DNA of 64,000 bases, taken from assembly GCA_034716155.1 (NCBI GenBank), contig JAYEFR010000079.1, positions 1,444-65,443 on the forward strand, written 5' to 3'. A program made the translations under genes and the position numbers. Of this stretch, positions 52,015-63,575 are shown one piece after another. Within the stretch, counting starts at the first letter, position 1, and each line of letters begins with the position of its first letter. The notes under the pieces are model-generated. The model was not told where the DNA came from and did no database searches. It saw only the letters and a program-made list of their open reading frames with translations. Origin of the DNA: Thermodesulfobacteriota bacterium. Its GTDB lineage: Bacteria; Desulfobacterota; Desulfomonilia; UBA1062.

Positions 52015-53571
52015 CTATCCTATGATATGGGCTATCTTCTTGTTCAGGGGCTTCATAACCTTATATGTTCGCTTATACACGTCATTGTACAGGTCATTGT
52101 ATATCCTTTGGCTGGATGGAACAGGCTCAAAGGTTTTACCCTTCTTTACCATGGACGACACAGCCTGCTCGAAAGAATCGAACATGCCTGTACCCACGGC
52201 TGCATCTATAGCTGCACCAAGAGCTGCTATCTCTGATGTGGCCATCCTCGAGGTGGGCAGGTTGAAGATATCAGCTGCTATCTGAACCGCCACATCACTC
52301 TTAGAACCCCCTCCCCCTACCCGTATCTCGTCTAGGGTTATTCCCGTCTTATTATGGACAACCTCTAAGAGACGGCGCAGTTCATAGCCTATTCCTTCTA
52401 ATATAGCCCTGTAGATATGTGCCCTGGTATGGACATCACCAAAGCCTATGACCGAGCCCTTGGCATATTTATCATAAATCATAGGTGACCAGTATGGCTG
52501 GAGCATCAGACCCATAGATCCTGGGGGGATGTCTTTTATCACCTCATCAAATACAGCTTCAGGGACAATCCCCCTTTTTTGAGCCTCCAAGGCCTCTCTA
52601 TGTCCAAATTCCTGCTTAAACCATGTGACCATCCAGAAACCCCTAAAGATAAACATCTCAATGTCCCAGGTATTAGGGAGTGCAGCGGGCCAGGTGAAAA
52701 ATTTCATGTTTTTCTCTGCAATATACTTCTTTGTAATCACCTCCATGCATGTAGCCGTCCCAAAGCTTATTACCCCGATGTTTGATTCTATGGCCCCTGC
52801 GCCTAAAAGCTCAGACTGCTTATCACCGGCACCTACCACCACAGGAAGCCCCTCGGGGAGCCCTGTCTGTGAAGATGCCTTTTTGGTGACATGCCCAAGC
52901 ACGGTATCAGGTGTATAGACGTCAACAAGGTGGTCCCGATCAAGGGCAAAGGCCTCATATGCCGGCTGCAAGGAATGCCATTTGAGTTTCTTATAATCAA
53001 GGGGCCACAGCCCAGTGACCATACCCACCGAGTCCTTGAACTCCCCTGTTAGCTTGTTTGCAAACCAGCCTGATATCTGCATGAATTTATAGGTGTTTTT
53101 ATATATGTCAGGCTCAAACCTCTTAATCCATAAGAACTTCGAATTCTTCCGCACATACTTAATGGCATCTGACATCCCTGCTACACCAAAGAGCACCTTG
53201 GCCACTAAACCAAGCGGGGGGGGGTCTACCACGGTACGCTGATCCAACCAGATAATAGCCGGCCGCAAAGGATTACCCTCCTTATCCACAGGGACAAACG
53301 TCCCCCGCTGCGTTGTAATCCCGATGCCTGTAATCTCCTCTGGATCAACCGCGATTTTAGACATGAGTCCATTTGTTACCTGGCAGAGCTTTGCCCAGTA
53401 GTCCTCCGGGTTTTGTTCGGCCCACCCCGGCTTCAAGGAAAAGTAGGGCTCATGAGAGGCCTGCTCTATTGCCAGTTCGTTCCCATCTCTGTCAAACAGG
53501 ACCGCCCTTACACTTTGTGTCCCGGAATCTATCGCAATTACATAATTTTTTTCTCCCATAGCCTCCTCCAT
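52015..53571 (-). CDS. FGGY family carbohydrate kinase (glycerol kinase / xylulokinase-like)
   Basis: IAIDSGTQSVRAVLFD, GWAEQNPEDYW, C-terminal GGG..S motif. Confidence 0.8.
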   Translation of the reverse strand: MEEAMGEKNYVIAIDSGTQSVRAVLFDRDGNELAIEQASHEPYFSLKPGWAEQNPEDYWAKLCQVTNGLMSKIAVDPEEITGIGITTQRGTFVPVDKEGNPLRPAIIWLDQRTVVDPPPLGLVAKVLFGVAGMSDAIKYVRKNSKFLWIKRFEPDIYKNTYKFMQISGWFANKLTGEFKDSVGMVTGLWPLDYKKLKWHSLQPAYEAFALDRDHLVDVYTPDTVLGHVTKKASSQTGLPEGLPVVVGAGDKQSELLGAGAIESNIGVISFGTATCMEVITKKYIAEKNMKFFTWPAALPNTWDIEMFIFRGFWMVTWFKQEFGHREALEAQKRGIVPEAVFDEVIKDIPPGSMGLMLQPYWSPMIYDKYAKGSVIGFGDVHTRAHIYRAILEGIGYELRRLLEVVHNKTGITLDEIRVGGGGSKSDVAVQIAADIFNLPTSRMATSEIAALGAAIDAAVGTGMFDSFEQAVSSMVKKGKTFEPVPSSQRIYNDLYNDVYKRTYKVMKPLNKKIAHIIG

Positions 53572-53605
53572 ATATAATCCAAAGATATTTTATTGTTCTC
53601 ATCAT

Positions 53606-54979
53606 CTAGCATTCAGGCTCCCATGTGCTGTCATGAGAGCGATAATAATCAAAGAATCTCTTCTTATGTTCCTCAGCCTTTTTGATCAGGGCTTCCTCAT
53701 CCAGATACCCCATCTGTATGAGAATCTCTTCGATCTTGACCAATGCCTGCTCATACGGCGGGCACCCTCCAAGAAACCGGTCTATCCCACCAAGCTGCAT
53801 CTCATTTCTTATCTCCCTTAGATCCCCTCCAGTTGAAAGGGCGCATTCCCCCAGAAAAAAGGTGTGCTCAATGTCGGTAGATAACTTCGGAGGAATCTTT
53901 GGGTCTACGCCAACGATCAGGGAAAACCTCTGAGGCACCTTTGCCAATGTGGCTTCTACAATAGCGGTCATTAGCCAGCATGTAGGGCAAGCCCCGCCGA
54001 TATAGAGATCGATATTCGGGTACACACCGGTGACAATACTCTCGATGGGCTGGGTAAAGTTGATAGGGAGTTCAAACTTCTTCCTTACCTCAGAGACGGT
54101 ATTCCCAACCACCTCAATTAAGAAGGGATTTGCAACACCAAGCCCATCATGATTTGCTATCCGTGTAGTGCCCACGACCATGGGATTATCTATACCCATG
54201 CACATGGAGGCTATGGCATCAACGGCTACAGGGTTATCACCTGCCATGATCACCCCCATCTCCACAGGATTACCACCCTCACCTGCACCCATTCCTTCCA
54301 TACCGATAAGCCCGTCAAGTATTACAAGGTCTGGTTTTCTGATCTTGTTGATATCCACCATGTGCTGATCCAGATCATCTCTGTGGGAGAAATACCTTCC
54401 CTTTTCATCCAGGAGCCCCTGTAGATTCTTGATGGAAAGCGTCACCATAGTCATAGTATGAGTCTTCATAGCCGGAATGTTTATAAAATAGTCTGCATCA
54501 AGGACAACCTTTGGGTAGTTCACTCTGTGAAGTGCCTTCCCCCCCTTGATATCAACAACCACCTTTTCCGCATCTTCTACACCAATCACTTCGCCACCAG
54601 CATCTTCTACAGCCCTTTTTACCCCGATCATCCTCATTACCTCAATAGTGCTAAACCCCCTGGCCATCCCACGGGTCGATCGTGCTGGGTTCACCCTCTT
54701 CATCAGTGTGCCCACACTCACACCCTCAATTACAGTAACTCTTGTCGCTCCAGCCCGCCTTGCAAGCCTTACCACAGAGGCAATTACCCTCCTGTCCACT
54801 GAAATTGGTGGAGGATAGGGGGCAAAGAGATTTGGCTTTATAACCACATGATCTCCCTTTCTTATCCTCTTAGATAGCCCTCCTATAAGATCTACAGAGC
54901 TTTTTACCATTGCCTCTATATCAGATGCATTAAGGGGGAATTGCCCCTTAACAATCGCTACCGCCACCTTTCCGCCCAT
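53606..54979 (-). CDS. DUF362 domain protein with Cys-containing C-terminal extension
   Basis: DUF362-like VVIKPNL..., AMKTH, LSIKNLQG, IMAGDNPVAVDAIA motifs. Extra ~150 aa with CPTC, GECA, GGCPP. Confidence 0.6.
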   Translation of the reverse strand: MGGKVAVAIVKGQFPLNASDIEAMVKSSVDLIGGLSKRIRKGDHVVIKPNLFAPYPPPISVDRRVIASVVRLARRAGATRVTVIEGVSVGTLMKRVNPARSTRGMARGFSTIEVMRMIGVKRAVEDAGGEVIGVEDAEKVVVDIKGGKALHRVNYPKVVLDADYFINIPAMKTHTMTMVTLSIKNLQGLLDEKGRYFSHRDDLDQHMVDINKIRKPDLVILDGLIGMEGMGAGEGGNPVEMGVIMAGDNPVAVDAIASMCMGIDNPMVVGTTRIANHDGLGVANPFLIEVVGNTVSEVRKKFELPINFTQPIESIVTGVYPNIDLYIGGACPTCWLMTAIVEATLAKVPQRFSLIVGVDPKIPPKLSTDIEHTFFLGECALSTGGDLREIRNEMQLGGIDRFLGGCPPYEQALVKIEEILIQMGYLDEEALIKKAEEHKKRFFDYYRSHDSTWEPEC

Positions 54980-54991
54980 ACGCTTCTCCTT

Positions 54992-56695
54992 CTAGCTGGC
55001 CTTAAAGGCCTTTCTCTTTTCGCCTGTAAAATCAAGCCCAAGCGTGCCTCCCGGATTCATGATGTTATTCGGGTCAAGGTGAGTCTTTATAGCCCTCAAC
55101 AATCCCATGCTTGTCTCGCCCATATACTCTTCGTACCAGGGTGCCATCATCCTCCCTATTCCATGGTGGTGGGATAACCCACCACCATGGTGCTTAATAG
55201 CATTGATAATTGAAGTATGGTATTCCACAAAGTCATCGATCTCATCGCCTGGCTTTATCCGAGAGATAAATATAAAGTAGAGATTTGACCCGTTTTCATA
55301 GGAATGAGATGCATGCACCATACATACGGAATTCGGTCTTGCCTTTACCACCTTTCTCACCTCAGCCCGCAATCTCGGGATGTCCTCCCAGGTACATGCA
55401 GTCTCCAAGGTATCTGTCATGACCTTCATGTCCATCAGCTCTTCCCTTAAGTATGGGTCATTGTAGCGATGCTTATGCCACGCCTTTACTGCAATGGAAC
55501 CAAGCGATAGACCCCCATGCCTCCTGGCAATAACCTTTGCCTTTTTCTTGATCAGACGTCCCGCATCCTTATCCCCCTCAGTAGATCCCAGCATGAGACA
55601 TCTCTTCCCATCTTTATAGCCCAGCATTTTAAGCCCCTTGTCTATGGGAGTAGCACTTATCCCCTCAGTAACAAAGGCGATTGATGTCTCTTCAGGGTCG
55701 GAAATGCGAAACATGTGCGGAAGGCCAAACCCACCCTGCATGATCTCACGCATGGAGGTGACACACTCTTCCCAGTCCTTAAACAAAAAAGAAAAGTATA
55801 CCCGGTTTTCCGGCTGAAACTTCCATATCTTGAGCGTAGCCTCGGTAAGGACACCCAGGGTTCCTTCACTGCCCATGACTAAGTGACGCAAATCCGGCCC
55901 TGTGGCAGCCCTGGGAAAATCCTTTGTAACAATAAGACCCTTAGGAGTGACAAATCTCAGCCCCAAAACCATATCTTCTATCTTTCCATAGCCTGTGGAA
56001 AGACCGCCTGCCCCCCGGGTAACCACCCATCCCCCAACAGTGGAATACTCAAAGGACTGGGGGAAATGCCCGTTGGTATAACCGCCAGGAGAAAGAGGTG
56101 TCTTGTAATTATTGAGGTAGTCTTCATAGGCAGGGCCAAATATCCCTGGCTCCACTGTGACGCTTAAATTTATCTCATTTACCTCCTTTATTCGATTCAT
56201 GTGTCTGGTAAGATCAAGACTTACCCCGCCTTTTACAGGCTCAAGGCCTCTGGTCACGCTCGATCTCCCACCAAATGGGATGAGGGGAATCTTTTTTTCA
56301 TTGCAGAACTTGACCACTGCTATCACATCTGCTTCATCCCTTGGATATACCACTACATCAACTAAGGGTTCTACGTCTTCCAATCTCAACTTGACTATAT
56401 CAAGGTAGGTAAACCCAACGCTGTGTCTTACCCTCTCGTAATCTGAGGCCTCCACATTCTCCTCACCCAGGATCCCCTTCAATGCTGAGATATCGCTTTC
56501 TGAAAGGGCTGACTTCCTGTCAATCCCGACCTTATCCAAACCAGGCAAATGGGGGGTTTTTAAGTCCTCTTTTGTTACCCCCATATTCTCCTTCAAATAT
56601 TTTATCATCCGCTTCTTTGGTTCCACAAAATGTTTGGGGTCTCCCCATTTCAATATGGAGCGATATGAGTCTCCATCAAATTTTTTTACTGACAT
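54992..56695 (-). CDS. FAD-linked oxidase (PCMH-type FAD-binding; alkyl-DHAP synthase / D-lactate dehydrogenase-like)
   Basis: 567 aa. VVYPRDEADVIAVVKFCNEKKIPLIPFGGRSS FAD-binding region, preceded by a ~100-aa N-terminal extension typical of the alkyl-DHAP synthase branch. Confidence 0.75.
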   Translation of the reverse strand: MSVKKFDGDSYRSILKWGDPKHFVEPKKRMIKYLKENMGVTKEDLKTPHLPGLDKVGIDRKSALSESDISALKGILGEENVEASDYERVRHSVGFTYLDIVKLRLEDVEPLVDVVVYPRDEADVIAVVKFCNEKKIPLIPFGGRSSVTRGLEPVKGGVSLDLTRHMNRIKEVNEINLSVTVEPGIFGPAYEDYLNNYKTPLSPGGYTNGHFPQSFEYSTVGGWVVTRGAGGLSTGYGKIEDMVLGLRFVTPKGLIVTKDFPRAATGPDLRHLVMGSEGTLGVLTEATLKIWKFQPENRVYFSFLFKDWEECVTSMREIMQGGFGLPHMFRISDPEETSIAFVTEGISATPIDKGLKMLGYKDGKRCLMLGSTEGDKDAGRLIKKKAKVIARRHGGLSLGSIAVKAWHKHRYNDPYLREELMDMKVMTDTLETACTWEDIPRLRAEVRKVVKARPNSVCMVHASHSYENGSNLYFIFISRIKPGDEIDDFVEYHTSIINAIKHHGGGLSHHHGIGRMMAPWYEEYMGETSMGLLRAIKTHLDPNNIMNPGGTLGLDFTGEKRKAFKAS

Positions 56696-57510
56696 ATTTT
56701 ACTCCTTTTATTAATATTTCTTCTCTTAAGAATTATACTTGCCATCTCAGCAAAACCAAGACTGCCACTACCTAATGTAATGTATTTGGGTAAAAATTCC
56801 ATCTTTGTGATAAATCTTTTTATATTAGCCACCCCCACAGATAGAGAAAAGGCTTCAAACATAGGCTCATCATTAGGTGAATCACCAATAAAGAGAAATT
56901 TTTCTTCTGCCTCTTTTTCATCCATACTTAGTCTCTCCTTTATAAAGAGTCTGGTCATAGTAAGCTTGTCATAGTCTCCGAACCACCCATTTACGTGTAT
57001 AGAACTTATCTTATATCTGGCTCCGTGCTCAGAAAAGATATTGCATATCACCTCTATCTCCCCATTAGTTAAGGGGACGACATCTTCAGAGAAATCAATG
57101 GCAAGATCAAACAGGCGATAGGGCTGATCCGTGGCCACACGCGCCCTTGGAACCTCTGTTAGTATCTCCTTCTTAATTGCTTCAATCTCTTTTTTTTTCT
57201 TTACAATCTCCTCAGGGGGGGAAAAGTATCGATGTAAAAGCCTCCCCTCTTGTTCATTATAGTAGAAATAAAAGGCCCCGTTTTCCCCGATGATACCATC
57301 CACAGGCCACATACGGGCAATATGATCACACCAGCCTGCAGGACGCCCTGTAATAGGGACGGTGAAAAGACCTGCCTTATGAAGGGCCCAGAGGGCTGAA
57401 TAGGCATCTTTTAAAATCTTTCCCTTAAAGGTAACTGTATCGTCAATATCGAAAAATACCCCTCTTACTTTCCGGCATTCTGAAATAGAGATTTCAGAGA
57501 TCAGCTTCAT
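56686..57510 (-). CDS. HAD-IIB (Cof-like) phosphatase
   Basis: DIDDTVT (DxDxT) and GDSPNDEPMF (GDxxND). Start set at MKLISE after AGGAGGG; the track start lies 23 codons upstream. Confidence 0.75.
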   Translation of the reverse strand: MKLISEISISECRKVRGVFFDIDDTVTFKGKILKDAYSALWALHKAGLFTVPITGRPAGWCDHIARMWPVDGIIGENGAFYFYYNEQEGRLLHRYFSPPEEIVKKKKEIEAIKKEILTEVPRARVATDQPYRLFDLAIDFSEDVVPLTNGEIEVICNIFSEHGARYKISSIHVNGWFGDYDKLTMTRLFIKERLSMDEKEAEEKFLFIGDSPNDEPMFEAFSLSVGVANIKRFITKMEFLPKYITLGSGSLGFAEMASIILKRRNINKRSKICQ

Positions 57511-57644
57511 CTTCCCTCCTAACTCTGCCTGTCTCTTGGAATATTTCTCATTATTATAGCTGATCACAAAAAAAGGCAAGCACCATCATTCTTTATAAAC
57601 GATCATACAACCCGTCATGCCTGCTTAAACAGGCACAACCAAAG

Positions 57645-57700
57645 ATGAAAATAGTGAATAGACTTGTCACTTCGCAGTGAATCCTGCGTAATCCCGAACC
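57645..57700 (+). repeat. Repeat-family fragment (GATGAAAATAGTGAATAGACTTGTCAC...)
   Basis: Shares the ATGAAAATAG end and the AGTGAATAGAC motif with 39225-39238. Lies in the 166-nt larE/HAD spacer. Confidence 0.5.
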
Positions 57701-57746
57701 ACAGTAATGGTAGGTTATCTGCTTTTTCGAATCTGAGAAAAAGGCT

Positions 57747-58544
57747 CTAGCGTTTGGTTTGCACCAGCCTGTTCATCTTGCCGCTTTCAAACCCCTCCAA
57801 GTCCAGGGAAACAAACAAGAATCCAATACCTCTTAACTCAGAGAGGATCTCATCTTTTTTTCTAATGGCCCCCTTTAGATCTTCAACCTCAACCAAGGCA
57901 GTATCATATGGAAAGCACCTTACCCTCACCCATTTAAAACCCAGTTCCTTCAAAAATGCCTCTGCCCTCTCCACCCTTCTAATCAGCCCTTTATTTAAGC
58001 CGAATCCATAAGGGAACCTGGAGCACAGACAGACCGTGGCCGGCTTATCCCATGCTGGCAGGTCTAGTGCCGAAGAATATTTCCTTATATCCTCCTTTGT
58101 CACCTTGAATTCTATAAACGGGTGCCAGATTCCGTCTTCATCTGAGGCCTTAAGCCCAGGCCTGTAATCATCAAAGTCAGAATAGTTCATACCATCTGCT
58201 ATTACATCAAATCCATTCCCCTTTGCCCAGCTTGTAACTGTTTTATCCCTTATTTTCCTGCAGATATAGCACCTGTCTGGCGGGTTATTTACAAACTCTT
58301 TATTCCCCAGCTCATTAATATCTATAATCTCCTGGCCAATCCCTATCTTCTCAGCCAATTGTTTGGCATCTTTTATATCAGCGCGCTGTACTATTGGAGA
58401 ATCTATCGTAACGCCAACAGCATCCTCCCCTAAGGCATCATAGGCCAACCTCGCAAGGAGCGTGCTATCAAGCCCTCCGGAAAACATCACTAATAACCTT
58501 TTTTTATCCTTGATCGCTCTTTTTATCCTGCTTAGCCTCTCCAC
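57747..58544 (-). CDS. larE: LarE, ATP-dependent sulfur transferase of nickel-pincer nucleotide (NPN) cofactor biosynthesis
   Basis: PP-loop SGGLDS, NPPDRCYICRK, DYRPG, WDKPATVCLCSR, VRVRCF motifs. Confidence 0.8.
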   Translation of the reverse strand: MERLSRIKRAIKDKKRLLVMFSGGLDSTLLARLAYDALGEDAVGVTIDSPIVQRADIKDAKQLAEKIGIGQEIIDINELGNKEFVNNPPDRCYICRKIRDKTVTSWAKGNGFDVIADGMNYSDFDDYRPGLKASDEDGIWHPFIEFKVTKEDIRKYSSALDLPAWDKPATVCLCSRFPYGFGLNKGLIRRVERAEAFLKELGFKWVRVRCFPYDTALVEVEDLKGAIRKKDEILSELRGIGFLFVSLDLEGFESGKMNRLVQTKR

Positions 58545-59295
58545 CCATACCTCTTTCTATTGCACGAAGCACTCTGACAGCCCCGGCTGCGGCTCCAACT
58601 GTATTACCTATATTCACCACCAAAACCCCGGGGACGCAGGTCTGCAGCATGGTAGTAAGCGCACCCTTGCCCTCTCCGCCAAATCCATACCCTATTGGCG
58701 TTGGCACAGCTATCACTGGCAGATCCGTCATCGATGCTATCAGGGTTGGAAGTACGCCTTCCATTCCTGCAAATACGATCAGCACATCAGAGTCTTTCAC
58801 CTTTTTCAGGCTCAGGTGAGGCCTGTGTACCCCGGATGCACCAGTATCATAAGAATTGATAACCTCTGCCCCAAGTTCCTTCAAGATCAGTGAGCACTCT
58901 TTAGCATATGGTATGTCTGATGTCCCAGCAGTGATGACCCCAACAGTGCCAAGGCCTTCTTGCATATGATCTCTTTTCTTGATTACTATGACTCTTCCAG
59001 CCTTTTCCACCTTTAAACCTGAAAATGCCTCCTCTAATTTATTCCCCCCTTCATGATCGATGTTTGAGATAAATACAATATCGTTTTTCTCCAGGACCTT
59101 CTCAGTGATCACCAGCAGGTGTTCTATTGTCTTTCCCTGGGCGAAGATCACCTCTGGAAACCCAATGCGGTTACCCCTGTGCAGGTCTAATAGAAAATCC
59201 TCGCCTTCTTCATAGAATAGTCTTAAAATTCTTTCTTCTGCCTCTTGCCCGCTCAATCTCCCCCTTTTATATAATTCAAGGGTTTCTTTAAGCAT
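58504..59295 (-). CDS. larB: LarB, nicotinate-adenine-dinucleotide carboxylase/hydrolase (pyridinium-3,5-biscarboxylic acid mononucleotide synthase; PurE-like)
   Basis: DLHRGNRIGFPEVIFAQGKT N-terminal motif. PurE-like VGVITAGTSDIPYA. Confidence 0.8.
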   Translation of the reverse strand: MLKETLELYKRGRLSGQEAEERILRLFYEEGEDFLLDLHRGNRIGFPEVIFAQGKTIEHLLVITEKVLEKNDIVFISNIDHEGGNKLEEAFSGLKVEKAGRVIVIKKRDHMQEGLGTVGVITAGTSDIPYAKECSLILKELGAEVINSYDTGASGVHRPHLSLKKVKDSDVLIVFAGMEGVLPTLIASMTDLPVIAVPTPIGYGFGGEGKGALTTMLQTCVPGVLVVNIGNTVGAAAGAVRVLRAIERGMGGEAKQDKKSDQG

Positions 59296-59314
59296 CTTCT
59301 TTCCCCCATGCCTT

Positions 59315-60487
59315 TTAATCCTTAATCCGGCCTCTTATCACCTTATCAAGGTCTGCCCTCACCTGAGCAACAGATATGTCTTCCTCGACTGAAATCCTAT
59401 ACATATCCCTGTATTCAGGCTTATACCTCTTCACCCCATCAGGAGCGATCACCTCTTTTACCTTCACGTCACCATATCTGGTATGGATTGTGTACTCTTT
59501 TCTTGGAAGAACTCTTCTCTCAACCAGATAATATCTGGCCCCAATAGAGGTTGAATGTGTCAAGAGGATAGTCAATATATCCTGGAGATCTTTTGATGAT
59601 GAGATGGCCTTTATCCCAACCCCTGGCCTTCCCCTCTTCATAATCCTTGAAGTAAGACTCACATCTAAGGCCCCTACCTCAAAGAGTCTTTGTGTCACAG
59701 CCTCCCATTCTTCAGGTGACATATCATCAACATCTGCCTCCGTCACATATACCTGATCTTTGCCCTCATCCGGCACCTCGCACAGGATCGATCTAAACAG
59801 ATTAGGCCATCCCTGATATTGTCTGTCACCGCATCCATACCCCACGCCTGTAATGACCATATCTGAAGGCGGGTCTTTTACCTCTGAAATGGCCTTCAGC
59901 ACAGCAGCCCCTGTTGGGGTTACAAGCTCTGCTTCTATGCCGGTAACCCTAATCTTTATCCCAGCCAATAACTTGACAGTTGCTGGTGCAGGCACAGGAA
60001 TAATCCCATGCATGGAGTCTGTAGTCCCATACCCTACAGGAACAGGCCTGGTGTAGGCTTCATCCACATCAAGCCACTCAAGAGCGGCGGATATCCCTAC
60101 GATATCAAGGATCGAGTCCACTGCACCTACCTCATGAAAATGCACATCATCTGGGTCTATCCCATGAACATCGGACTCTGCCAAAGCTATAAGATCAAAT
60201 ATTCTCAAGGCCTTTTGCTTTATACCTTGAGGGATTGTAGATTGAGAAATAATCTCTTTTATCTGAGAATATCTCCTGACTTCATCTGTCCTTTCCACAT
60301 CAAATTTCAGATCCAGAGATTCTATTCCATTTACCTTCTTAAGAGATGTCTTTATATTGTACCCTCCAAGGTCAAGGCCATCAAGAATACCTTGCAGATA
60401 CTCGATAGGACATCCAAGGTGGATAAGACTTCCTAATATCATGTCGCCACTTGCCCCGCCAATAGGGTCAAATATCAAAACCTTCAT
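59315..60487 (-). CDS. larC: LarC, CTP-dependent nickel insertase (DUF111)
   Basis: MKVLIFDPIGGASGDMILGSL DUF111 N-terminus. 390 aa. Confidence 0.8.
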   Translation of the reverse strand: MKVLIFDPIGGASGDMILGSLIHLGCPIEYLQGILDGLDLGGYNIKTSLKKVNGIESLDLKFDVERTDEVRRYSQIKEIISQSTIPQGIKQKALRIFDLIALAESDVHGIDPDDVHFHEVGAVDSILDIVGISAALEWLDVDEAYTRPVPVGYGTTDSMHGIIPVPAPATVKLLAGIKIRVTGIEAELVTPTGAAVLKAISEVKDPPSDMVITGVGYGCGDRQYQGWPNLFRSILCEVPDEGKDQVYVTEADVDDMSPEEWEAVTQRLFEVGALDVSLTSRIMKRGRPGVGIKAISSSKDLQDILTILLTHSTSIGARYYLVERRVLPRKEYTIHTRYGDVKVKEVIAPDGVKRYKPEYRDMYRISVEEDISVAQVRADLDKVIRGRIKD

Positions 60488-60913: not shown

Positions 60914-61789
60914 ATGTGGAGTTACATTCAACTCATCCTTATCTATACCTTTATCCTGGGATCCATTTATCTACTGGTCTCTTTGGGTTTCTCCATCATC
61001 TGCGGGGTGTTGAGAATCTTTCATCTGGGCTATGCCTATATCTTCCCCCTAACGATTTACGGGACATGGATGTTCATGCAGGAGTTAGGATGGGGTTTGA
61101 TCCCTGCTATTTTAGGCATGGTAGTAATCCAGTTTATCATCTCCTATCTCATCTATAAGGGGATGATCAAGAGGTACTTAGAAAAAGAGGAGATCCTGCT
61201 TACAGCCCTGCTACTGGTATCTCTCATCGTGGAGCAGGCCGCCAACTACCGGTATCCGATCCAGGCAGGTGTATACCTTAAAACCTCCCTGATTGAAGGA
61301 ACCACACAGATAGGTGTAGTTGTTATCCCCACCCAACTTGTGATTGGGGCATTTATTGCCCTTATCCTCACTGCTCTCTTTGTCCTTTTCTTCATTAAAA
61401 CAAAGACCGGACTGGCGGTAAGGGCTCTCTCTCAGGACATCTACAGCTCCAAGATCATTGGAATAAATGTTGAGACCCTCTATATCTTTACTATGATGAT
61501 TGTCCTGGTACCGGTTATCATCTCTATGCTCGTTGTGGCCCCTGTCTGGGCAGTGGAGCCAGGCATGGGCTGGCTTTATATGACCATCGCCATTCTGGTC
61601 TCGGTTCTCGGCGGGTTAGGCAACATTAAGGGCACCATCATTGCCAGCTTTCTCATTGGATTAACACATGCCATCATGTGCTTTGTTGTAGGAGAACCGC
61701 GTTTCATGAATCTATCGGCCCTGGTTTTGGTTATGATCATCCTGATAATAAGGCCGCAGGGGATAGCAAGGAGTGAGGCATTATGGTAG
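60914..61789 (+). CDS. livH: Branched-chain amino acid ABC transporter permease (LivH-like)
   Basis: 8-TM protein, N-terminal LILIYTFILGSIYLLVSLGFSI. Confidence 0.8.
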   Translation: MWSYIQLILIYTFILGSIYLLVSLGFSIICGVLRIFHLGYAYIFPLTIYGTWMFMQELGWGLIPAILGMVVIQFIISYLIYKGMIKRYLEKEEILLTALLLVSLIVEQAANYRYPIQAGVYLKTSLIEGTTQIGVVVIPTQLVIGAFIALILTALFVLFFIKTKTGLAVRALSQDIYSSKIIGINVETLYIFTMMIVLVPVIISMLVVAPVWAVEPGMGWLYMTIAILVSVLGGLGNIKGTIIASFLIGLTHAIMCFVVGEPRFMNLSALVLVMIILIIRPQGIARSEALW

Positions 61790-62823
61790 ACATTGAATTC
61801 AAAAGAGATCGCATCGTTATCAGATACAAGGAGAAGAAATGGGACTGGATGCTTGAGCCCAGATACTGGCGGAATTCTATTATCTGGACAAGCATGTTGC
61901 TCATCTTTCCTGTGTTTGCTTTCTTTGTAAGCCCCGGACTTATCAACACCATGATCACTGCAAATATTTACGCGGCCATTGCCATCCCTTTAGCCCTAAT
62001 GACCATAGGGACCGGGCGAATGAACTTCGGCCCGAATTTTTTCATCGGCATTGGAGGTTATACAGCAGCGCTACTCAGCATTGCCTACGGGTGGGGGCCG
62101 CTTGCGACCTTGCCTTTTGCGATCATTCTCACGATACTGGCTGCCCTTATCTTCAGCCCACTTGTTGTTGTAGCCCGTGGGCTTTACTACGTGCTTCTCA
62201 CCCTGCTTTTACCTCTGGTTTTTCTTGAAGTGACCTTTATCTACTCGAATATTTTTAAGGGGGACGTAGGCCTTTTCGGCATTAAGCTGCTGGTCGACAT
62301 GGGAAATGCCAAACTCAATTTTCTGACAGTGGCCTATATCTCAACAGGAATAATGCTTTTATACCTTTTGGTGGTAAACAAAATCTTAAAATCGCGTTAC
62401 GGTCTGATTATGGCTACCATCAATGATGATGAGGAAGTAGCCCATGGGATCGGAATCAATATAAACAAGGTCAAGATCCTTGCCTTTGTCTTTCCCGCTG
62501 GCATGATTGGAGTTATGGGGTGGTTTCTTGCCCACTACTTTGGGACCTTTGCCGGAATTACCTACCTTCCGCTCACCTTCATGTTAAAGATACTCTTGGT
62601 CCTTATTATCGGGGGGAGGGCCCAGGTATTTGGATGTGTAATAGGCGGTTATTTTGTAGCCTTCTTAGAGATGATCCTCATCAGGACCATGGGGCCTATC
62701 CAGCCAGTGGTCTTTCCTATTATCCTCCTTATCCTCCTCTTTGTGCTCCCTGAAGGCCTCTTCGGGATCTACCGCAAACGCCGCTACAGGGAATATTTGC
62801 CAACCCTACATGTGCGGAGGTAG
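61783..62823 (+). CDS. livM: Branched-chain amino acid ABC transporter permease (LivM-like)
   Basis: 346 aa, multi-TM. Overlaps livH by 7 nt. Confidence 0.8.
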   Translation: MVDIEFKRDRIVIRYKEKKWDWMLEPRYWRNSIIWTSMLLIFPVFAFFVSPGLINTMITANIYAAIAIPLALMTIGTGRMNFGPNFFIGIGGYTAALLSIAYGWGPLATLPFAIILTILAALIFSPLVVVARGLYYVLLTLLLPLVFLEVTFIYSNIFKGDVGLFGIKLLVDMGNAKLNFLTVAYISTGIMLLYLLVVNKILKSRYGLIMATINDDEEVAHGIGININKVKILAFVFPAGMIGVMGWFLAHYFGTFAGITYLPLTFMLKILLVLIIGGRAQVFGCVIGGYFVAFLEMILIRTMGPIQPVVFPIILLILLFVLPEGLFGIYRKRRYREYLPTLHVRR

Positions 62824-62828
62824 ATAAG

Positions 62829-63575
62829 ATGACAGAATTACTTAAAGTCCGCAACATCACCAAGAGCTTTGGAGGCCTTACTGCACTTAATAATGTGAGC
62901 TTCGACGTTCATAAAGGAGAGACAGTGGGTTTTATCGGACCGAATGGCGCTGGAAAGACAACCATGGTCAATGTACTCTCCGGCTATATGTATGCGGATT
63001 CCGGTGAAATAGTAATGGACGGGGTAGTAATTACCAAGATGAAGCCCTATCAGCGGGCCAATCTGGGCCTAAGCCGTACTTATCAGATTCCTCGACCCTT
63101 TCCCGAGTTGACCGCCTTAAACAGTGTTGTAACAAGCGCCATGTGCGGGAAAAAGCGTAAAAACCAGAGCCTGGAGGATGCCGGGTATGAGGCTACACAT
63201 TACCTGGAGTTTGTAGGGCTTTTCAGCAGACGGAATATTCTGGCCAGCGACCTGACCTTTTACGAACTGAGGATGCTGGAGCTTGCAAGGGCACTGGCCA
63301 CCACGCCAAAACTTCTTTTTATTGACGAGGTTATGGCCGGTCTTAACCCGGGGGAGGCCAATAAGGCGGTCCACCTAATTACCCGGGCCAAGGAAGAGTT
63401 CGGAATCTCCATCTTCTGGATCGAGCATGTAATGGCAGTCCTTATGGATGCAGCCGACCGAATTGTTGCCATCGATCATGGCGAAAAGCTTGCTGAGGGA
63501 ACGCCTGAGGAGGTTACCAGCAACGAAAAGGTGATTGAGGCCTATCTGGGTTCTGGCTGGAGGACATATGCTTGA
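62829..63575 (+). CDS. livG: ABC transporter ATP-binding protein (LivG-like)
   Basis: GPNGAGKTT Walker A. LSGG-type signature region. Confidence 0.85.
   Translation: MTELLKVRNITKSFGGLTALNNVSFDVHKGETVGFIGPNGAGKTTMVNVLSGYMYADSGEIVMDGVVITKMKPYQRANLGLSRTYQIPRPFPELTALNSVVTSAMCGKKRKNQSLEDAGYEATHYLEFVGLFSRRNILASDLTFYELRMLELARALATTPKLLFIDEVMAGLNPGEANKAVHLITRAKEEFGISIFWIEHVMAVLMDAADRIVAIDHGEKLAEGTPEEVTSNEKVIEAYLGSGWRTYA

Follow-up and report, generated by a model that had tools for sequence, protein, structure and literature searches.

A DUF362 protein encoded beside nickel-pincer nucleotide biosynthesis genes: a LarA homologue and predicted user of the cofactor, linked to an FGGY kinase

We analyzed a 64,000-nucleotide (nt) stretch of a Thermodesulfobacteriota metagenome-assembled genome (MAG) (assembly GCA_034716155.1, contig JAYEFR010000079.1, positions 1,444 to 65,443; hereafter, the window), in which seven genes on the minus strand follow one another: larC, larB and larE, responsible for the biosynthesis of nickel-pincer nucleotide (NPN), a cofactor, and the genes for a HAD-IIB hydrolase, an FAD-linked oxidase, a DUF362 protein and an FGGY kinase. 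The DUF362 protein is a distant, two-domain homologue of LarA, the classical NPN-dependent enzyme, and represents a sister family rather than an unrelated scaffold. This protein is likely to be the acceptor of NPN, because it shares the LarA fold, its conserved lysine and histidines align with those of LarA, and its gene is recurrently linked to lar genes. As the best overall explanation, with a probability of about 0.6, we propose that the DUF362 protein is an NPN-dependent, LarA-like enzyme that partners with the kinase in acting on a sugar, a polyol or the corresponding phosphate; our confidence in the specific chemistry is low.

The predicted model of the DUF362 protein has the two-domain alpha/beta fold of LarA, and the top 19 Foldseek matches are all LarA family proteins, with alignments extending across both domains. 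The L. plantarum LarA (LarA_Lp) sequence (identical to 5huq_A) matches the Pfam hidden Markov model (HMM) of DUF362 with E=5e-5. DUF362 and DUF2088 belong to the same Pfam clan, CL0471, and for that reason, DUF362 has been used as an outgroup in the work of the Desguin group (PMC11770544). Given the score of LarA with the DUF362 HMM and the common clan, the DUF362 protein is a distant LarA homologue. The protein from the window matches PF04015 only and shows no match to Lar_N (PF09861) or LarA_C (PF21113) even at E<=10, unlike the LarA control that matches both; searches of the PDB sequences with the protein and with its profile yielded nothing useful; and comparison of shallow DUF362 and LarA profiles using hhalign gave a probability of 0.1%. 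The first-pass annotation, made from the sequence of the window, suggested that the DUF362 protein might be a non-LarA acceptor of the Ni-pincer cofactor. The role of acceptor is well supported by the fold, the residues and the gene context, but the "non-LarA" part fails, given the shared clan and the LarA match to the DUF362 HMM.

An HMM was built from 132 diverse DUF362 proteins retrieved in a search of a library of representatives at 50% identity. In the HMM alignment, H174, K184 and H199 of the DUF362 protein pair with H174, K184 and H200 of LarA, and hhalign yields the same pairing. Among the 132 proteins, K184, H199, K48 and D222 are each present in 131, N50 in 130 and H174 in 117. The pattern H-x9-K-x3/4-G-x10-H, which is present in LarA, was detected in 120/120 orthologues, in 102 of 131 diverse representatives and in 119/119 proteins of a ferredoxin domain-containing subfamily (DUF362-Fer4), but in none of the 120 LarC controls. 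We predict that H174 is the catalytic histidine, K184 the lysine that tethers NPN through a thioamide, and H199 the Ni ligand. Of the NPN core that is conserved among LarA homologues, namely, Lys, Ni-His, one catalytic His, Asp and Arg/Lys (PMC12611868), DUF362 retains the Lys, the Ni-His and one catalytic His; because LarA His108 lacks a DUF362 counterpart, the active site is predicted to contain a single catalytic histidine.

Four cysteines, C331, C334, C379 and C406, form a site in the C-terminal domain that has no equivalent in LarA. They are invariant in 27 orthologues and kept in 125-127 of the 132 diverse DUF362 proteins; other DUF362 proteins carry 2x[4Fe-4S] ferredoxin domains. This Cys4 site is predicted to bind an Fe-S cluster or Zn, probably Fe-S. 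Both motifs on which the first-pass annotation drew, KTH and KNLQG, are present, as are its Cys residues, and all are invariant in the relatives. We regard DUF362 as a branch of the LarA-like superfamily that has diverged deeply, bears the Cys4/Fe-S site and is predicted to use NPN: in fold and key residues it resembles LarA, but as DUF2088 is defined, it falls outside that family. The family of the window protein is highly conserved, at 58-91% identity in MAGs that are labelled as Thermodesulfobacteriota, Dehalococcoidia, Spirochaetes and others. It also shares a specific Arg-rich insertion (R95, R107), modelled with low confidence, which provides a context hint on the substrate. DUF362 as a whole is large, with 6693 proteins matching at E<=1e-3 in the 50%-identity representative library.

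A survey of gene neighborhoods drew on genome and metagenome collections and covered at least 105 unique orthologous loci, whose flanks of up to 10 kb were annotated using tblastn. The core of these loci is the DUF362-FGGY gene pair, with an FGGY homologue directly downstream of DUF362 in 63 of the 69 loci with enough sequence; a HAD homologue is frequent: 48/67 loci have one no more than 4 kb upstream of DUF362, and a 4-nt overlap is often seen. None of the annotated loci encodes LarA. In ten loci besides the window (L007, L010, L011, L022/L065, L057, L084, L104, L124, L125 and L134), lar genes, either larCBE or larCB, are located directly upstream of the module; L124, L125 and L134 were found by matching the lists of DUF362 and LarC hits. 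The lar-linked set comprises 6 of the 55 loci for which 5 kb or more of upstream sequence is available, 3 shorter loci, and L134 that was found afterwards, compared with a chance expectation of about 0.1 loci (an estimate that assumes one lar cluster per 3-5 Mb genome). No lar genes were detected in six loci that encode DUF362 paralogues of 35-41% identity (L105-L110) or in L123.

The lar-linked loci display several architectures. The arrangement larCBE-spacer-HAD-FADox-DUF362-FGGY is found in the window and in L084, the only lar-linked loci with the FAD oxidase; other variants are larCBE-HAD-DUF362-FGGY; larCBE-DUF362-FGGY (L007); larC-larB-HAD-DUF362-FGGY with 4-nt overlaps (L124, L125); and a compact larC-larB-larE-HAD-DUF362-FGGY (L134). 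DUF362-FGGY alone is shared by all of these forms. Neighboring genes in L124, L125 and L134 either overlap or lie within 50 nt of each other. In genomes other than that of the window, the lar genes and the module clearly form a single operon. Thus, the neighborhood check shows that the association of DUF362 with lar genes recurs across genomes, including compact operons. The four-gene module originally described stands with respect to DUF362-FGGY and, usually, HAD, but the FAD oxidase is not a constant member (10/67 loci).

The strongest single result comes from the DUF362-Fer4 subfamily (about 387 aa, with two CxxCxxCxxxC ferredoxin motifs). In Spirochaetota, a compact operon consists of DUF362-Fer4, a 55-nt gap, larB, larC overlapping larB, and larE overlapping larC. 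In the classical lar operon of L. plantarum, larA holds the position that is taken here by DUF362-Fer4. The Spirochaetota operon was observed in MAG loci L135-L140 (for example, L135 8001-12404) and L132 (3711-8172), with an additional gene for a small DUF2784 protein and 4-nt overlaps; it contains no genes for metabolic partners.

Gene identities in the window were established using Pfam and NCBIfam profiles with curated cutoffs (Table 1). The open reading frame (ORF) calls and both profile collections agree on the seven minus-strand genes, in the order and at the positions initially reported. The set of larB, larE and larC is complete as claimed, each protein scoring above its NCBIfam equivalog cutoff. 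By profile similarity, LarC, in which LarC1 and LarC2 are fused in a single 390-aa polypeptide, is a CTP-dependent nickel insertase; LarB is a NaAD carboxylase/hydrolase; and LarE is an ATP-dependent sulfur insertase of the catalytic [4Fe-4S] type, with the CxxC-C motif described for T. maritima LarE (PMC9283937). As called, larE starts with GTG and overlaps larB by 41 nt (58504-58544); the genuine start may lie further downstream. The reported lack of larA in the window holds as well: the LarA HMM run against 113 six-frame ORFs produced a best E=0.11, and Pfam scans gave no DUF2088 match. No Lar_N or aldo-keto reductase (AKR) domain was found in 20 further window ORFs scanned with Pfam, and no NphT-type AKR near the lar genes among 27 window ORFs scanned in the same manner. 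The seven-gene run is flanked on one side by a convergent GAPDH gene and a gene for a GAF protein and on the other side by a divergent Liv-type ABC transporter (60914-63575).

Table 1. Genes and sequence elements of the seven-gene run in the window
Feature	Position	Strand	Evidence
larC	59315..60487	-	PF01969 (Ni_insertion) E 2.9e-120; LarC1 197.6 bits vs cutoff 90; LarC2 123 vs 50
larB	58504..59295	-	NCBIfam LarB equivalog 221 bits vs 175; AIRC domain
larE	57747..58544	-	TIGR00268 271 bits vs 150; SGGLDS PP-loop; CYIC...VCLC
larE-HAD spacer, 236 nt	57511..57746	-	sigma-70-like element and ribosome-binding site
HAD-IIB hydrolase	56686..57510, start corrected (called 56686-57579)	-	TIGR01484 62.6 bits vs 41.8; Hydrolase_3
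FAD-linked oxidase, VAO/PCMH type	54992..56695	-	PF01565 (FAD_binding_4) and PF02913 (FAD-oxidase_C)
DUF362 protein, 457 aa	53606..54979	-	PF04015 161.5 bits vs cutoff 24, residues 45-257
H174...K184...H199 codons (HTMTMVTLSIKNLQGLLDEKGRYFSH) in DUF362 gene	54383..54460	-	translation
C331-x2-C334...C379...C406 codons in DUF362 gene	53762..53989	-	translation
FGGY kinase	52015..53571	-	FGGY_N and FGGY_C; 34 nt downstream of DUF362

The seven genes had been described as one fused unit, but in the window, there are probably two. The distances between the genes, as called, are +19, -41, +167, -10, +12 and +34 nt, so that the reported range of -41 to +34 nt was borne out, whereas the gap after larE is 167 nt as called and 236 nt with the corrected HAD start. 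The likely start of the HAD gene is the ATG at 57510 behind AGGAGG, which gives a protein of 274 aa, the median length of the homologues. The resulting spacer contains TTGCCT (57579-57574), TATAAT (57558-57553) and the ribosome-binding site AGGAGG (57520-57515), although promoter and terminator scans were overall at the background level; no terminator-like site was found in the spacer in the scan, and no riboswitch or other RNA element was identified by Rfam in the 50-64 kb part of the window. In the 93%-identical relative L084, the proximal ~140 nt of the spacer upstream of HAD are conserved, and a gene for a 905-aa hybrid histidine kinase (PAS-HisKA-HATPase-REC) is located on the opposite strand between larE and HAD (L084 4528-7245). 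In the other lar-linked group, the equivalent spacers have a TGTTCA-17-TAGAAT element in common. The spacer is therefore probably the module's own promoter, as suggested by these sequence elements, and taking into account also the L084 insertion, larCBE and HAD-FADox-DUF362-FGGY of the window are most likely adjacent units with separate promoters, with possible read-through.

Among the partners of DUF362, the FGGY protein has LsrK and glycerol kinases as the best PDB matches. It is unlikely to be a glycerol kinase: in an approximate comparison, TTQRGT occupies the apparent equivalent of the glycerol kinase substrate motif, which we take to be NQRET. The HAD protein, with the motif I sequence DIDDT, is, by profile similarity, a HAD-IIB phosphatase or a phosphomutase-type hydrolase. 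The FAD-linked oxidase was annotated as alkyl-DHAP-synthase/D-lactate-dehydrogenase-like; the first half of this description is justified (PDB 2uuu, alkyl-DHAP synthase, E 1.6e-75, 258 bits), but the similarity to D-lactate dehydrogenase is much weaker (E 2e-27), so that the protein appears to be alkyl-DHAP-synthase-like. With its presence in 10/67 related loci, the oxidase is an accessory, occasional member of the module. An ether-lipid or glycerol-phosphate reading, suggested by this alkyl-DHAP-synthase-like oxidase, GlpD-like and Fe-ADH_2 proteins and the GAPDH adjacency, is kept as a lead only, because the supporting genes occur in a minority of loci. GAPDH adjoins the module in two arrangements, and the neighbors in various lineages include genes for GlpD-like, Fe-ADH_2, GntR, MFS_2, GH1 and fucose-isomerase-like proteins.

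Several additional observations concern the module and its homologues. Upstream of DUF362, a second FGGY paralogue (40-46% identical) and an FAD-linked oxidase (32-47%) are encoded in L006, L026, L040, L045, L053, L069, L078, L096 and L102, and some of these double-FGGY loci also include a GlpD-like DAO/DAO_C dehydrogenase upstream of HAD-DUF362-FGGY. In Dehalococcoidia/Chloroflexota, a conserved 670-aa protein without a Pfam match is encoded near the module (L027 3557-5569), with homologues in L001, L019, L020, L026, L028, L044 and L047; MFS_2, GH1 and fucose-isomerase-like genes occur with it. Between the window and Dehalococcoidia/Chloroflexota MAGs (L001, L019, L020 and others), the DUF362 proteins and the FGGY proteins are 72-76% identical; a value this high is unusual for phyla so far apart and suggests that the module was transferred horizontally or is under very strong constraint. 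Residues 148-282 of the DUF362 protein produce a sub-threshold match (E 2.6e-20, 73 bits vs a cutoff of 500) to the NCBIfam "Npun_F2552 family", a name apparently derived from a Nostoc punctiforme locus tag. Cyanobacteria have been noted for the presence of larBCE without larA (PMC11796402), and this sequence likeness may be a lead to the missing cyanobacterial NPN user.

The surroundings of larC vary as well. Directly upstream of larC, where the window has the Liv-type ABC transporter, L007, L022, L124, L125 and L128-L130 carry a divergent gene of the nitroreductase family, often accompanied by one for an enoyl-CoA hydratase, and in that clade, the nitroreductase-larC adjacency is kept with or without the DUF362 module. 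In L126/L127 (5009-11182), a LarC 57% identical to that of the window belongs to a different cluster that encodes an altronate/galactarate-dehydratase-like protein, a true Lar_N LarA homologue, a ferredoxin and an aldehyde:ferredoxin oxidoreductase and lies directly upstream of dsrAB-like, dsrC and dsrMKJOP-like genes.

Under the mechanism we propose, LarB, the [4Fe-4S]-type LarE and LarC would make NPN, which the DUF362 protein would receive, with Lys184 as the tether and His199 completing the Ni coordination. His174 would serve as the acid/base while, as in LarA, a hydride moves between the C-H/OH of the substrate and either C4 of the pyridinium or Ni. In this way, a secondary alcohol would be oxidized transiently, probably leading to epimerisation or an aldose/ketose-type isomerisation, and we infer that the substrate is a sugar, a polyol or the phosphate of either. 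The compound on which DUF362 acts would be made or consumed by the FGGY kinase; the HAD-IIB phosphatase is often present as an accessory, the alkyl-DHAP-synthase-like flavoenzyme only occasionally. The Cys4 site of the C-terminal domain could be structural or could function as an electron relay, in which case the enzyme could be a net oxidoreductase.

Several points weigh against the interpretation of the DUF362 protein as an NPN-dependent sugar or polyol enzyme. The evidence is computational throughout: it shows the gene identities, the fold, the conservation of residues and the linkage across genomes, from which NPN binding, the type of reaction, the class of substrate and the metal of the Cys4 site are inferred. 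When a deeper DUF362 profile was compared with a three-sequence LarA alignment using hhalign, the residue pairing was the same, but the scores were not significant alone, and the expected spatial clustering of H174, K184 and H199 is derived from alignments only. In a low-confidence region, LarA D72 (ribose contact) and R75 (phosphate contact) align with N50 (Asn in 130/132 proteins) and A53, although the nearby invariant K48 might stand in for the missing phosphate/ribose contacts. LarA His108 aligns, depending on the alignment, with Ser88 or Ala106, positions that vary across DUF362 and contain no His. With regard to the substrate, the FGGY kinase scores below every NCBIfam equivalog cutoff (XylB 274 vs 380, LsrK 232 vs 528, GlpK 184 vs 590). 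Furthermore, 49 of the 55 orthologous loci that extend 5 kb or more upstream contain no lar gene within 10 kb; related LarC proteins are encoded beside a true Lar_N protein in L126 and L127 or without a recognisable acceptor in L128-L130; and the promoter-like spacer in the window and the opposite-strand gene in L084 split the lar genes from the module. The last three observations fit the alternative under which the genes adjoin by coincidence or only through loose regulation, larCBE supply a canonical LarA or an AKR-type user encoded elsewhere in the genome, and DUF362 employs only its Fe-S/Zn site or another cofactor, its conserved Lys and His being features inherited with the fold that have taken a different role. 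This explanation is unlikely because there are at least four distinct lar-DUF362 architectures, several of them with overlapping genes (L124, L125, L134), a second DUF362 subfamily belongs to a compact larBCE operon in another phylum, and the conserved residues are exactly the NPN tether and the Ni ligand of LarA.

Other alternatives accept NPN binding by DUF362 and differ in what the protein does with the cofactor. Rather than a redox-neutral epimerisation or isomerisation, it could catalyse a net, ferredoxin-linked redox reaction on a sugar or polyol (phosphate), with the Cys4 site or the ferredoxin domains exchanging electrons with the cofactor, which would fit the conservation of the four Cys in 125-127/132 diverse members, the 2x[4Fe-4S] ferredoxin domains of many DUF362 proteins and the hosts being strict anaerobes; we nevertheless find this quite unlikely, given that no redox partner gene is conserved beside the module and that the known NPN chemistry is a two-electron hydride transfer (PMC12611868, PMC13524815). 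The Spirochaetota operon, composed solely of DUF362-Fer4, larB, larC, larE and DUF2784, could also indicate that DUF362 is a carrier or store of NPN or a tailoring/activation factor, rather than the catalytic end user. Such a role is improbable when the window-family DUF362 is tied to FGGY (63/69) and HAD even where lar genes are not nearby, the catalytic-type His174 is conserved, and LarA itself holds the same operon position in L. plantarum. The first-pass annotation offered yet another scenario, namely, that a distant LarA makes a D-hydroxyacid that is oxidized by the adjacent D-lactate-dehydrogenase-like flavoenzyme, so that the lar genes would be linked to the FAD oxidase. The oxidase does belong to the GlcD/D-lactate dehydrogenase superfamily in the broad sense, but alkyl-DHAP synthase is by far its closer relative, no more than 10/67 related loci encode it, and it is missing from all lar-linked loci other than the window and L084. 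This scenario is therefore not supported, and we consider it highly improbable.

We therefore return to the DUF362 proteins as NPN-dependent LarA-like enzymes, probably an unrecognised class of NPN users. To our knowledge, there are only three known Ni-pincer scaffolds: LarA, an AKR and an ornithine cyclodeaminase. The premise of the first-pass annotation that only the LarA family uses the cofactor is dated, the AKR-fold NphT and the ornithine cyclodeaminase being known users (PMC13524815). In contrast, its assertion that the gene combination is not a described system is upheld: the searchable literature contains no DUF362-NPN link, the single mention of DUF362 being its use as an outgroup (PMC11770544), and no functional study of DUF362, PF04015, COG2006, IPR007160 or Npun_F2552 was found there. 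The open question in the field is what uses NPN in the many LarA-less genomes that make the cofactor (PMC11796402, PMC13524815), and the locus described here and its relatives nominate DUF362, a large uncharacterised family, as one such user. We further suggest, tentatively and with more doubt than confidence, that the whole DUF362 superfamily is a second large Ni-pincer branch, which would explain part of the ~15% of genomes that encode larBCE but no larA, and in which coupling of NPN with Fe-S may give ferredoxin-linked net redox, a chemistry that no known NPN enzyme performs; the combination of a Ni-pincer and an Fe-S site would be new bioinorganic chemistry. K184, H199, H174 and Cys331/334/379/406 are offered as residues for mutation, and the partner kinase guides the substrate search; with these residues and partner defined, the NPN question is directly testable using the published E. 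coli larBCE co-expression system.

Compared with the LarA superfamily (DUF2088), the DUF362 protein lacks matches to PF09861 and PF21113 as well as equivalents of His108, Asp72 and Arg75, and adds the C-terminal Cys4 site, with ferredoxin domains in the sister subfamily. LarA enzymes are 2-hydroxyacid racemases and epimerases, whereas DUF362 is encoded with a kinase and a phosphatase and not with hydroxyacid enzymes; therefore, the DUF362 substrate is probably not a simple 2-hydroxyacid. The single-histidine LarA_Sp and LarA_Bw (PDB 9q3j, 9q2u; PMC12611868) resemble DUF362 in having one of the two catalytic histidines and a carbohydrate or sugar-phosphate context. However, they keep His108 and lose His174 (replaced by Asn), so that DUF362 is their mirror image, and unlike DUF362, they are true DUF2088 members without a Cys4 site.

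Like DUF362, NphT is found beside larBCE in larA-less clusters, a His/Lys pair predicts cofactor binding, and it acts on sugars (PMC13524815), the substrate class that we infer for DUF362. In contrast to DUF362, which is homologous to LarA, NphT has an AKR TIM-barrel fold unrelated to LarA. The NphT study sought proteins without LarA homology (PMC13524815), and DUF362 fell outside that search because it is homologous to LarA. The NPAD-dependent ornithine cyclodeaminase (Desguin 2025, cited in PMC13524815) is another non-DUF2088 Ni-pincer user found via lar neighborhoods, but it differs from DUF362 in its fold, its non-covalently bound dinucleotide cofactor and its amino-acid substrate. In operons of the ara/xyl/fuc/rha type, a sugar-rearranging enzyme is encoded beside an FGGY kinase, as predicted for DUF362-FGGY, and the Dehalococcoidia module occurs, as in sugar operons, with a GH1 glycosidase, a fucose-isomerase-like protein and an MFS_2 transporter. 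Unlike these operons, the module has no conserved aldolase, and its putative sugar-rearranging enzyme is predicted to hold a nickel cofactor covalently.

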